Shown here: piece by piece, positions 12,352 to 32,944 of the stretch | Layout: each line of letters begins with the position of its first letter | Position numbering within the stretch: position 1 is the stretch's first letter | Source of the DNA: Nanobdellota archaeon | GTDB taxonomy: Archaea; Nanobdellota; Nanobdellia; Pacearchaeales; GW2011-AR1 | Reading direction: 5' to 3' | Length of the DNA stretch: 35,977 nt | NCBI GenBank assembly: GCA_038045305.1 | Contig: JBBSYJ010000006.1 | Span: forward strand, 1-35,977 | Position numbers and translations under genes: made by a program | The notes under the pieces: generated by a model | Database searches by the model: none | What the model saw: only the letters and a program-made list of their open reading frames with translations | What the model was told of the DNA's origin: nothing

Positions 12352-12469
12352 AAAGTTTAATTTTGAAAGAATATCATGCTGCTGTAGTTTAATTAAAACA
12401 CTTGCTTAGTTTGCAAGAGATGTTGGTGAAAACCCTTCCGGTGGCTCCAATATAACTATTAAAGTAAAA

Positions 12470-30807: not shown

Positions 30808-30879
30808 TGCGCGGACCGGGATTCGAACCCGGATCTCCTGCTTGGAAGGCAGAAAGTCTAGCCATTGACCTATCCACGC
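30808..30879 (-). tRNA. tRNA-Gly (anticodon UCC)
   Basis: Hand fold of the reverse complement: GCGTGGA-TA-GGTC-AATGGCTA-GACT-T-TCTGC-CTTCCAA-GCAGG-AGAT-CCGGG-TTCGAAT-CCCGG-TCCGCGC-A. It forms a 72-nt cloverleaf with no encoded CCA. Confidence 0.85.
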
Positions 30880-31712
30880 GGCATTAAATTAAGGTAATTT
30901 TGATGTTTTTTTAAATGTTTGGAGTTTGCAGGTTTTATTAAATTGAAGAATTTTTCTATATCTGCTTTTTTATAGATAGAGATTTTGTTCGTCCCTTTTG
31001 ATATATTGAAGCCAGAATAAACTAAAGCATTTTTTACTTCCTCTAGAAATTTAAGATCTCCACTACTTATTTCTATAACAGGGTCTTTTTTCCTTCTTAG
31101 ATAAAAAGTACCATCTGTATCAAATAATCCCTTTAGATAAGAGATTAAAAATCCCTTAGAAATAAAAACTTGCTTAGGAATTTTTAGCTTTCCGAGTTTT
31201 TTTCCTTTTGGTAGTCCATAGATGTTAACCAAAATATCTGAAACTCCTTTTGAATAAACTCTTAATTTGATTCTATTAGGTTCTATAAAAAGAGTAAAAT
31301 TTGTGTTAAACTTCTTTTCAAAGAGTATTTTTAAGTATTCAAAATAATCCTTTTCTTTAGAATTCCCCACAACACATACTTCATATTTAAATTTGGAAAG
31401 ATGACCATCTCCATTTAAGATTCCAAGTATTTCGGCGAGCTTTTTATCCATTTTAGGCGGAAGAATTTCTTTTTGAACAAATCTTGTTTTGGTAATTCTT
31501 TCATACTCTTTTATTCTTACTCCTGCAATATCTTGTATTTTTAAGAAAATATTTTCAGGGATAGAAAATCTTCCAGAAAGATAATGAAGAAACATCGCTC
31601 TGCTTACATTAAAATCAAGATAAATCTTTCTCCATGATTTATTCATTTTAACTTTTAATGCATTGAATAATCTCTTCCTTTCATTATCTTTTAATTTGAT
31701 AAAAATAGGCAT
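30870..31712 (-). CDS. Free-standing double-motif LAGLIDADG protein with an N-terminal HTH-like extension
   Basis: Two dodecapeptide motifs, LAEILGILNGDGHL and LKGLFDTDGTF. About 90 aa of N-terminal extension. The last ~3 codons overlap the 5' end of tRNA-Gly. Confidence 0.8.
   Translation of the reverse strand: MPIFIKLKDNERKRLFNALKVKMNKSWRKIYLDFNVSRAMFLHYLSGRFSIPENIFLKIQDIAGVRIKEYERITKTRFVQKEILPPKMDKKLAEILGILNGDGHLSKFKYEVCVVGNSKEKDYFEYLKILFEKKFNTNFTLFIEPNRIKLRVYSKGVSDILVNIYGLPKGKKLGKLKIPKQVFISKGFLISYLKGLFDTDGTFYLRRKKDPVIEISSGDLKFLEEVKNALVYSGFNISKGTNKISIYKKADIEKFFNLIKPANSKHLKKHQNYLNLMPRG
30906..30915 (-). promoter_or_regulatory. TATA-like box upstream of tRNA-Gly
   Basis: Minus-strand TTTAAAAAAA lies 27-36 nt upstream of the tRNA 5' end, inside the 3' end of the LAGLIDADG ORF. 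Confidence 0.4.
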
Positions 31713-31789
31713 TCAATAAGGTATAACTAAAAGATTATAAATATTACTATCTCGTACTACCCGTTAGACCATATCATAATAAATCCAAA

Positions 31790-31886
31790 CGCCCCCGGCA
31801 GGATTTGAACCTGCGACCTACGCCTTTATCAAACTTGCCTTGATTGTTAGGACGGCGCCACTCTATCCGGGCTGAGCTACAGGGGC
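31790..31886 (-). tRNA. Intron-containing tRNA, probably tRNA-Arg (CCU)
   Basis: Reverse complement: GCCCCTG-TA-GCTC-AGCCCGGATA-GAGT-G-GCGCC-[29 nt]-GGCGT-AGGTC-GCAGG-TTCAAAT-CCTGC-CGGGGGC-G. The 29 nt between the anticodon stem halves are a 7-nt loop plus a 22-nt insert. Canonical 37/38 placement gives the loop GUCCUAA (anticodon CCU). CCA (Trp) is not excluded. Confidence 0.65.
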
Positions 31887-31889
31887 ATA

Positions 31890-31973
31890 TGCGGAAGACA
31901 GGGATCGAACCTGCGCAGGCACTAAGCCACAAGAGCCTTAATCTTGCCTATTTGACCACTCTAGCACTCCCGC
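31890..31973 (-). tRNA. Type II tRNA-Leu with apparent anticodon AAG
   Basis: Reverse complement: GCGGGAG-TG-CTAGAGTGGTCAAATAG-G-CAAGA-TTAAGGC-TCTTG-[15-nt variable arm with GGC/GCC stem]-GCAGG-TTCGATC-CCTGT-CTTCCGC-A. 84 nt, lying 3 nt upstream of the next tRNA. Confidence 0.75.
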
Positions 31974-32723
31974 ATAAATAGAGTAAGGAGATAATTCATT
32001 TTTAAGTATTCTCTTTCTTATTGTAATAGAAGTATTTGGCGGGCAAAAACCAGTTTTTTCCCAGATATTATATTTTGTGAGGTGTTTAGGATTTTTAGAT
32101 CCTATCTCTTGCATCCATTTTTTTACTTGTATGCCTCCAGAAATCTTAACTGTATACGAAGATTTGTTGTTGGTATTAGAGGGTTTTCTTTCTGAGATAA
32201 GACATTTAAAGTTAAGTGACTTTAAAGAAAGATAAATTTCTTCAATTAATTTTTTAGAGGTACAAGATAAATAAATTCTTATTTGAGTATGATATTTATT
32301 GTTTTTGATAGAATAATTTCTTTGACAAGATATACTCCCATCAGTATCAAAAAATCCCCTTAAAAATCGGATAAGATATTTATTATTATTTTTAATCCAT
32401 TTTGGAATTGAAAGTTCTTTTTTAATCCCACTTGGTATTCCTAGAAAATTCAATGGCTTTTCTATATTTACACTTTCTACTGAAAGACCATAAAAATTCA
32501 TTTTTTTATTAAATACCCTCCCAACCTCTCGCGAAAAAATTGGTAGCATTATTTCTCTATTAAATAAAGGAATAATATATGAGTCATAATGTTCTTTATC
32601 CTCCAATAAATTTCCTCTTAGTTGGAATTTAACCCTCTTAGAATTACTCCTATAAGTTAAACCTCCATCTCCAAAACTTAATCCTACTAATTCTGCAGTA
32701 TTTTCATTCCTTATTATTATCAC
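31938..32723 (-). CDS. Free-standing double-motif LAGLIDADG protein
   Basis: Motifs LVGLSFGDGGL and LRGFFDTDGSI. It starts at GTG with an in-frame stop immediately upstream. The last 12 codons (AGVLEWSNRQD) are the translated 5' third of tRNA-Leu, and the stop TAA lies in the anticodon loop. Confidence 0.75.
   Translation of the reverse strand: MIIIRNENTAELVGLSFGDGGLTYRSNSKRVKFQLRGNLLEDKEHYDSYIIPLFNREIMLPIFSREVGRVFNKKMNFYGLSVESVNIEKPLNFLGIPSGIKKELSIPKWIKNNNKYLIRFLRGFFDTDGSISCQRNYSIKNNKYHTQIRIYLSCTSKKLIEEIYLSLKSLNFKCLISERKPSNTNNKSSYTVKISGGIQVKKWMQEIGSKNPKHLTKYNIWEKTGFCPPNTSITIRKRILKNELSPYSIYAGVLEWSNRQD
31998..32005 (-). promoter_or_regulatory. TATA-like box upstream of tRNA-Leu
   Basis: Minus-strand TTAAAAAT lies 25-32 nt upstream of the tRNA 5' end, embedded in the LAGLIDADG coding sequence. 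Confidence 0.4.
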
Positions 32724-32792
32724 CTATTTCAAGAGGTAAGTGAAATATTAAATTGTTTCAATAATTCCAGAATAGTAAACAAAAAACAAAAG

Positions 32793-32800: not shown

Positions 32801-32821
32801 CTACTATTTATCTCAAATATT

Positions 32822-32933
<112 letters not shown>

Positions 32934-32934
32934 A

Positions 32935-32944
32935 CTTTTCTTTT
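32935..32944 (+). terminator. Oligo-T tract after 5S rRNA
   Basis: TTTTCTTTTT lies immediately 3' of the 5S closing helix. Archaeal RNAP terminates at such T-runs. Confidence 0.4.

Follow-up and report, generated by a model that had tools for sequence, protein, structure and literature searches.

Probable tRNA-linked LAGLIDADG homing cassettes in a Nanobdellota archaeon and related genomes

Results

Two LAGLIDADG genes run into tRNA genes

The sequence studied here is contig C6 of a groundwater archaeon, which belongs to a bin of 82 contigs (727 kb, 33% G+C); the whole stretch of 35,977 nucleotides (nt) that was analyzed is called the window. Its minus strand carries two free-standing LAGLIDADG genes, LAGLIDADG-2 and LAGLIDADG-1, each of which runs into a co-oriented tRNA gene, and we consider here whether the two units are homing cassettes that invade tRNA genes. 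The order on the minus strand is LAGLIDADG-2, tRNA-Leu(AAG), tRNA-Arg(CCT), a 76-nt spacer, LAGLIDADG-1, tRNA-Gly(TCC), secF and secD. As far as tRNA-Gly, this order and orientation had been claimed in an earlier note made from the sequence alone, and open reading frame (ORF) calls, ARAGORN and Rfam agree with it. The features are listed in the direction of transcription.

32745..32752, minus strand: TATA-like box TTTAATAT, recognized by sequence and position; starts 29 nt 5' of the LAGLIDADG-2 GTG and is kept in the related locus L015
31938..32723, minus strand: LAGLIDADG-2, 261 amino acids, GTG start, free-standing and single-chain; PF14528, E 1.4e-10
32661..32699 and 32334..32366, minus strand: the two LAGLIDADG motifs of LAGLIDADG-2
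31998..32006, minus strand: TATA-like box CTTAAAAAT of tRNA-Leu, within the coding end of LAGLIDADG-2 (..ILKNE.. codons)
31889..31974, minus strand: tRNA-Leu(AAG), complete; ARAGORN and Rfam (Rfam span 31890..31973, 48 bits)
31789..31887, minus strand: tRNA-Arg(CCT) with a 22-nt intron at 37/38; Rfam 48 bits (31790..31886) and ARAGORN with introns allowed
31754..31775, minus strand: decayed D-arm sequence GATATGGTCTAACGGGTAGTAC, a remnant of a resident-type tRNA-Gly 5' part, identified by its match to the L015 D-arm and by family comparison
31735..31741, minus strand: TTTATAA box, 29 nt 5' of the LAGLIDADG-1 ATG and kept there across the LAGLIDADG-1 family
30870..31712, minus strand: LAGLIDADG-1, 280 amino acids, ATG start, free-standing and single-chain; PF14528, E 1.3e-10
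31401..31439 and 31107..31139, minus strand: the two LAGLIDADG motifs of LAGLIDADG-1
30906..30915, minus strand: TATA-like box TTTAAAAAAA of tRNA-Gly, within the coding end of LAGLIDADG-1 (..KHLKK.. codons); this block is invariant in the family alignment
30808..30879, minus strand: tRNA-Gly(TCC), complete and intron-less; ARAGORN and Rfam, 66 bits

The overlap between LAGLIDADG-2 and tRNA-Leu is 36 nt with the Rfam 5' end (37 nt by ARAGORN) and that between LAGLIDADG-1 and tRNA-Gly is 10 nt, the same values as in the earlier note. The tRNA-Leu sequence supplies the final 12 codons of LAGLIDADG-2, whose stop codon TAA is U33-A34-A35 of the tRNA, and the tRNA-Gly sequence supplies the last 3 codons and the stop of LAGLIDADG-1. 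Since such tRNA-encoded tails use different frames in different relatives, they represent read-through and not a conserved peptide. Both tRNAs are contiguous 3' of their ORFs and the proteins have no host extein; neither ORF lies within a spliced intron or a host protein, in line with the previous statement that the tRNAs are complete and the enzymes are not encoded by introns or inteins. No recombinase ORF was found between the flanking genes, the LAGLIDADG ORF being the sole gene of each unit, and the combination of a tyrosine or serine recombinase with attachment (att) repeats that marks an integrase-type tRNA-targeting element is not seen.

TATA-like words start 36 nt before tRNA-Gly and 33 nt before tRNA-Leu, inside the ORF ends. 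A peak of such words at −35 to −31 before the tRNA start is common to 35 endonuclease-linked tRNAs and 25 other tRNAs of the genome studied here, so the tRNA promoter is at its normal place, which happens to be inside the coding end of the endonuclease, as had been proposed. The boxes TTTAATAT and TTTATAA (31735..31741) are putative promoters of leaderless mRNAs for LAGLIDADG-2 and LAGLIDADG-1, respectively. A different idea, that the lineage has no ribonuclease P and makes leaderless tRNAs, with promoter spacing as the target, was dropped on finding a ribonuclease P RNA (138 bits).

The two endonuclease proteins

Each protein matches PF14528 (LAGLIDADG_3) with 41.8 bits against a cut-off of 22.5, and the two are 25% identical over 220 residues (E 6e-9), which bears out their description as diverged paralogues. 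The motifs are LAEILGILNGDG and YLKGLFDTDG in LAGLIDADG-1 and TAELVGLSFGDG and FLRGFFDTDG in LAGLIDADG-2, so that an acidic residue is retained in both motifs of both proteins (GDG and TDG). The earlier note had proposed to check these catalytic residues, and their retention extends to the 87 proteins of the family tree described below: the Asp of motif 1 is present in 87/87 and an Asp or Glu of motif 2 in 87/87, the latter figure being partly built in, since motif 2 belonged to the search pattern.

An N-terminal extension of 88 residues is present in LAGLIDADG-1 only, as had been noticed. No Pfam match to the extension was found; in the AlphaFold model of LAGLIDADG-1 (predicted local distance difference test score 94.5) it consists of a short strand and four helices, and its supposed helix-turn-helix (HTH) identity is therefore plausible rather than established. 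The rest of the model has the tandem alpha-beta-beta-alpha-beta-beta-alpha fold. Foldseek matched the model with probability 1.00 to I-Tsp061I (template modeling score 0.72 on the target), I-DmoI and intein endonucleases, a relationship with which a profile search of PDB sequences agrees; a WhiA structure was also among the fold matches. Judged from these comparisons, both are intact genes of single-chain LAGLIDADG endonucleases, and their products are putative nucleases.

Linkage to tRNA genes within the genome and across phyla

The genome has 23 LAGLIDADG_3 matches, 10 of them in free-standing frames of 240–396 amino acids and the others in long intein-like frames. Seven of the 10 free-standing genes adjoin a co-oriented tRNA: five ORFs end between −37 and +28 nt from the tRNA start, a sixth (C41) has a partly N-masked tRNA-Leu(TAA) 37 nt further on, and a seventh (C15) enters the 5' end of a tRNA that is truncated at the contig end. 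Of the 545 ORFs with 150 amino acids or more, only seven end between −60 and +45 nt from the start of a co-oriented tRNA, and because five of these seven are LAGLIDADG genes the adjacency is not a matter of chance.

Seven long frames (683–1669 amino acids; contigs C57, C40, C46, C20, C21, C68 and C80) also hold LAGLIDADG_3 matches. These are presumably inteins in housekeeping genes, which would be a heavy load of selfish endonucleases for a genome of 727 kb. Contig C76 (2205–3269, equal to L209:206–1267) has a 354-amino-acid ORF that overlaps a tRNA-Trp(CCA) with an intron by 16 nt; it has weak winged-HTH and weak PD-(D/E)XK nuclease matches and no LAGLIDADG match, and it may represent a second nuclease family with the same tRNA-abutting arrangement.

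Searching by pattern in a single genome of every prokaryote species gave 80 loci, which span Woesearchaeota, Pacearchaeota, Nanoarchaeota, Aenigmarchaeota, Micrarchaeota, Iainarchaeota and Altiarchaeota as well as bacteria of the candidate phyla radiation (CPR). A co-oriented tRNA starts between −55 and +45 nt from the stop codon in at least 36 of the 80. In a group linked to tRNA-His the reading frame passes through the tRNA, and at several loci (confirmed with Infernal) a convergent variant occurs in which the 3' end of the tRNA meets the end of the ORF; in one convergent case, L069, a remnant of a tRNA 3' end is left. The survey of relatives suggested earlier thus finds the pairing across DPANN archaea and CPR bacteria.

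In a maximum-likelihood tree of 87 proteins the clades match the identity of the linked tRNA, down to the isoacceptor (Leu-AAG/GAG, Leu-CAA, Leu-TAA, Arg and His). The tRNA labels require 28 changes on this tree compared with 55.7 in shuffles (0 of 200 that low), a figure that shows clustering and not independent events, because kin share labels. Locus L091, in a bin labelled Dojkabacteria, has a His-linked endonuclease that nests within a clade of Pacearchaeota and Nanoarchaeota with a branch length of 0.1, and the 5' end of its tRNA-His, GGCGGTTGTCGTATAACGG, is near-identical to that of the truncated linked tRNA at C15:1–40 of the genome studied here. Either a transfer of the cassette between domains or mis-binning would explain this.

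Optional presence and replaced tRNA alleles

The number of LAGLIDADG_3 matches per genome varies from 0 to 23, and 7 of 20 relatives (7 of 21 genomes with the one studied here) have none. Two genomes of the same genus have one match each compared with 23 here: the gene of G002 is the orthologue of LAGLIDADG-2, and that of G001 is a different gene on tRNA-Ser(TGA). At the syntenic Leu-Arg-Gly-secF-secD locus LAGLIDADG-1 is absent from all three relatives examined; in its place L015 (the G002 locus) has an unrelated ORF of 174 amino acids, L016 has no LAGLIDADG gene and L066 has an Arg-Gly spacer of 117 nt. The comparison with alleles that lack the insert, also suggested earlier, therefore yields empty sites, and five other cassettes of the genome are missing from G002. 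Presence and absence at orthologous loci in close relatives is the behavior expected of a homing gene. The burst of seven cassettes here, against one per congener, argues for recent activity.

The window and L015 are 89% identical, and their homology stops at the 3' end of tRNA-Leu, comes back briefly in the 3' part of tRNA-Arg and returns for good only from nt 37 of tRNA-Gly. The window tRNA-Gly differs from those of L015, L016 and L066 in its acceptor stem (GCGTGGA vs. GCGCTGG, with compensatory changes) and its D-loop (GGCTAG vs. GGTAG), and it has no intron where that of L015 has one. The tRNA-Arg(CCT) shares its T-arm and the 3' strand of its acceptor with the L015 orthologue, which has no intron, and departs from it in the 5' half (D-arm and anticodon stem) and in having the 22-nt intron. 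No endonuclease gene touches it; it looks mosaic, perhaps by way of an earlier conversion event.

For the other cassettes, G002 supplies empty alleles, since the flanking DNA is 83–93% identical. At tRNA-Gln (C71) a remnant 25 nt 5' of the endonuclease start equals nt 1–27 of the G002 tRNA-Gln except for an AAA insertion, and the linked tRNA is identical to that of G002 throughout the 3' part and departs from it at three points of the 5' part, namely G7, C9 and an additional T in the D-loop. At tRNA-His (C15) the ATG is preceded, at a distance of about 45 nt, by a resident-like remnant, TAGTTCAACGATAG, and the linked 5' part is foreign. At tRNA-Leu(CAA) (C72) all stems differ from G002, and the whole tRNA has been replaced. 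At tRNA-Arg(TCT) (C60) the G002 resident is intron-less and in the opposite orientation, and here an endonuclease gene is followed by a co-oriented, intron-bearing tRNA. The comparison with the sister genome, then, shows one intron gain, in the linked Arg(TCT), and one intron loss, in the linked Gly(TCC).

Some further observations concern these loci. In the cassette-less G002 tRNA-Gln locus (last 260 nt of L103, equal to the end of L105), 15 nt of the tRNA-Gln 5' end are repeated (AGCCCTATAGTATAG) and a hairpin-forming insert of 55 nt is present, directly 5' of the intact tRNA. Both contigs end there, and the arrangement may be the footprint of a lost cassette. The genome studied here has two different tRNA-His(GTG) genes, the endonuclease-linked one of C15, cut by the contig end, and a complete one at C35:1653–1724, on a contig of 3.4 kb. 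Neither closely resembles the resident G002 allele, and duplication driven by a cassette or contamination of the bin could account for the pair. Runs of N lie exactly at the 5' junction of the endonuclease on C72 (4626–4727) and inside the linked tRNA-Leu(TAA) on C41 (about 2700–2790), so that assembly or masking breaks match cassette borders in both.

Remnants of tRNA genes upstream of the endonuclease

LAGLIDADG-1 has at least 120 full-length homologues with 44–65% identity (178 pass E 1e-5), none of which is a characterized protein. Three that were inspected have the order endonuclease, tRNA-Gly(TCC), secF, secD, and a scan of metagenomes gave 80 further loci, in at least 50 of which tRNA-Gly(TCC) follows. 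Fifty distinct loci of the family with sufficient upstream sequence were searched for remnants, and 41 of them have a piece of the tRNA-Gly 5' end that stops at nt 24–26 and lies 38–41 nt before the ATG. These remnants often have a TATA box of their own on the 5' side, and the conserved TTTATAA is on the 3' side. They score a mean of 16.6 to other tRNA-Gly alleles compared with 9.1 to the linked tRNA of the same locus. The window remnant matches the D-arm of the tRNA-Gly of L015 (TGGTCTAACGG-TAG), which has no endonuclease, and the whole window spacer can be aligned, with a score of 25, to the conserved left end of a family member, L122 (remnant, TTTATAA and leader).

A general search for a 5' copy of the linked tRNA's own 5' end was also tried and gave 4 of 46 mixed loci at p ≤0.015. 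This test was inappropriate, because the remnant resembles the resident allele and not the linked one.

The remnants bear on the suggestion that endonuclease genes merely pile up in the safe and well-transcribed space beside tRNA genes, the overlaps being a matter of compaction and the tRNA never being cut. The genomes are indeed extremely compact, and neither the Leu(AAG) clade nor the majority of the 80 mixed loci yields a detectable remnant. A mere landing spot would not, however, explain clades that are isoacceptor-specific across phyla, remnants that span nt 1 to about 25 and keep a constant distance at 41 of the 50 LAGLIDADG-1 loci, linked tRNA alleles that have been replaced, or the convergent L069 with its 3'-end remnant, and we think it unlikely.

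According to another explanation the units are fossils of tRNA-intron endonucleases or of tRNA-targeting integrase elements and are no longer mobile. Integrase elements give the same succession of fragment, element and rebuilt tRNA (PMC3293823), and in L050, from a member of the Micrarchaeota, a homologue lies between the 5' and 3' parts of one tRNA. The ORF in question (L050:3894–4748) stands between the acceptor plus D arm and the T arm plus acceptor and is closed by a 10-bp helix, GCGCAGAAGC/GCTTCTGCGC; no normal anticodon loop could be derived and there is no Rfam match, so it could be an intron-borne relative, with a tRNA that Rfam does not confirm. The tRNAs of the window, on the other hand, are complete and contiguous, no integrase is found in or beside the units of about 0.9 kb, and the seven cassettes here against one per congener do not look like relics. 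We regard this explanation as very improbable.

LAGLIDADG-2 and the question of a host function

The LAGLIDADG-2 orthologue of G002 (locus L015) is 90% identical, with a ratio of nonsynonymous to synonymous substitution rates (dN/dS) of 0.11, similar to the values of 0.09–0.11 for secF, secD and a membrane-protein gene. The pair of LAGLIDADG-2 and tRNA-Leu(AAG) is kept in at least five genomes, at 63–90% identity and in two different neighborhoods, and the protein belongs to the Leu(AAG/GAG) clade of the tree. By clade and anatomy LAGLIDADG-2 would fit the cassette class. It and its tRNA are best read as an older pair that was probably inherited by descent within the genus, and a role that benefits the host may exist; LAGLIDADG-1 is best read as a recent, strain-specific arrival.

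Long conservation of this kind could also mean that the proteins are domesticated, WhiA-like factors that bind tRNA promoters and regulate or assist the adjacent tRNA gene, in which case the linkage itself would be functional. The persistence of LAGLIDADG-2 beside tRNA-Leu(AAG) under a dN/dS of 0.11 can be counted for this proposal, as can the tRNA promoter inside the gene, the automatic naming of homologues as WhiA in some databases and the WhiA structure among the fold matches. WhiA, a bacterial transcription factor, likewise has a LAGLIDADG fold and an extra helical, DNA-binding-like domain, but it has lost the catalytic residues and has a C-terminal HTH; every member here retains the catalytic acidic residues, a C-terminal HTH is missing, and the extension is found at the N terminus in those proteins that have one. 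Moreover, the same tRNAs, tRNA-Leu(AAG) among them, occur behind normal promoters and without an endonuclease gene in G001, G003, G004 and G010 and at the Gly site of L015, L016 and L066, 7 of 20 relatives are free of LAGLIDADG_3 matches, and the arrival of the gene coincides with replacement of the tRNA allele and with remnants. Domestication is accordingly improbable as a general account, the same tRNAs being present without the gene in sister genomes.

Neighboring features and the A34 anticodon

Beyond LAGLIDADG-2 lies a gene for 5S rRNA.

32821..32935, opposite strand: 5S rRNA gene

A weak tRNA match (Rfam 37 bits, no ARAGORN call) occurs elsewhere in the window, at 12378..12446 among genes of a glycan island.

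The anticodon AAG (A34) on tRNA-Leu is unusual in archaea. The tRNA-Leu(AAG) is found in the window and in L199, L200, L201 and L207, and ARAGORN also reports Val-AAC, Thr-AGT, Ser-AGA and Arg-ACG in related DPANN loci, which hints at eukaryote-like A34/inosine decoding in the lineage. The possibility that this anticodon travels with the cassette was rejected, given an endonuclease-less tRNA-Leu(AAG) in four relatives.

Discussion

How a cassette would invade a tRNA gene

We think it probable that these units are selfish homing elements: a cassette enters a tRNA gene and restores it by means of a promoter and a tRNA segment that it brings along. This reading draws on what the sequences show, namely the anatomy of the loci, their recurrence, the specificity of clades for tRNAs, optional presence, replacement of the tRNA allele wherever a cassette sits, and upstream remnants of the former tRNA 5' part. 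The window would hold two independent tRNA-linked homing-endonuclease cassettes, each consisting of a TATA box of its own about 29 nt before the start codon, the gene of a single-chain LAGLIDADG endonuclease, a tRNA promoter embedded in the last codons of this gene, and the tRNA gene in which the reading frame meets its stop. The enzyme of a cassette would cut the allele of its tRNA gene that lacks the insert (in the case of LAGLIDADG-1, tRNA-Gly(TCC) near the boundary of D-stem and anticodon-stem, at about nt 22–29), and repair of the break would copy the cassette from a carrier chromosome. With it would come the promoter and a fresh tRNA 5' part, or at some loci the whole tRNA, and because the cassette carries both a promoter and a tRNA piece an intact tRNA would be restored downstream with neither intron nor intein. 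Left behind upstream, the former promoter and the first 25 or so nt of the tRNA would then decay, and the linked allele, in which the presumed target differs through changes such as D-loop insertions, would be immune. We infer the cleavage of the empty allele, the copying by break repair and the immunity of the linked allele from sequence comparisons.

Several points weigh against this reading. At tRNA-Arg(TCT) the whole tRNA was replaced and inverted, which is unlike simple homology-guided homing, and since the replacement is inverted not every event can have been of the simple kind. The purifying selection on LAGLIDADG-2 is as strong as that on SecF and SecD, and fits a host function equally well as ongoing homing. 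No tRNA-Leu remnant was found 5' of LAGLIDADG-2 and its clade. The window remnant of tRNA-Gly is short and by itself borderline against shuffles; its weight comes from the family comparison. The conservation of motif 2 owes something to the search, as mentioned. Finally, all genomes compared are metagenome bins, and two junctions of the genome studied here are N-masked.

Homing nevertheless is well supported, because the genes are optional, retain the catalytic residues, lie beside tRNAs again and again in different phyla and group into clades by tRNA identity. Of the interpretations offered in the earlier note, homing endonucleases find good support, and domestication finds none as a general explanation. 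A target in the regions upstream of tRNAs is probably wrong for LAGLIDADG-1: the upstream remnants of nt 1 to about 25 and the replaced downstream alleles indicate insertion within the body of the tRNA gene.

Comparison with known systems

The best matches in sequence and fold, I-DmoI and I-Tsp061I from archaeal rRNA introns and the intein endonucleases (domains of PI-PfuI and TliVMA), are likewise single-chain enzymes with two motifs and a catalytic Asp in each. The difference lies in how the host gene is healed, by splicing in their case and here, as we propose, by the promoter and duplicate tRNA segment on the cassette.

In phage T4 the free-standing GIY-YIG endonuclease SegB lies in a tRNA cluster, recognizes a motif conserved in tRNA genes and drives the preferred inheritance of itself and the neighboring tRNA genes (PMC2330249). 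SegB resembles the cassettes in being a free-standing endonuclease gene among tRNA genes, but it belongs to another nuclease family and a phage genome, is not fused to one tRNA, and has neither a tRNA remnant nor an embedded tRNA promoter. Integrase elements of the SSV and pNOB8 types and the Caldiarchaeum tRNA-Thr show the same footprint, with the element gene adjacent on the same strand (PMC3293823). In the Caldiarchaeum study integrase elements were proposed as the cause of tRNA disruption, and the element was tied to intron gain at position 24/25, with homing endonucleases unmentioned (PMC3293823). Such elements have a recombinase and att sites and measure from kilobases to tens of kilobases, in contrast to the lone LAGLIDADG gene of about 0.9 kb described here. 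Within a literature coverage largely without subscription journals, no publication was found that describes LAGLIDADG cassettes linked to tRNA genes, be it in archaea at large, in DPANN or in CPR bacteria, and this widespread class is apparently unpublished.

Implications

To our knowledge, homing endonucleases have been thought to persist in essential genes only within self-splicing introns or inteins. The family described here, a large one, seems to have found a third way: the cassette brings along a promoter and a duplicate portion of the target gene, and this gene is rebuilt after the invasion. Such genes merit annotation as mobile elements and not as "WhiA regulators" or hypothetical proteins, and they offer dozens of putative natural single-chain meganucleases whose approximate targets can be read from the remnants. 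The cassettes would account for variable tRNA alleles, introns and fragments between near-identical DPANN genomes, and would link selfish nucleases with the so far unexplained breaking up of tRNA genes in archaea.

A more tentative idea, which we hold to be possible though rather doubtful, is that the cassettes are one of the chief drivers of the turnover of tRNA genes in CPR bacteria and in archaea with small genomes. If this were true, cuts near nt 25 (elsewhere in other clades) and foreign pieces would produce mosaic tRNA genes, and stranded 5' and 3' tRNA fragments, gains and losses of introns and D-loop length variants as immunity alleles would follow. The process would then provide a concrete mechanism for the way in which split, permuted and otherwise oddly interrupted tRNA genes of archaea arose, a matter of long debate, and a route by which tRNA genes are transferred between archaea and bacteria.

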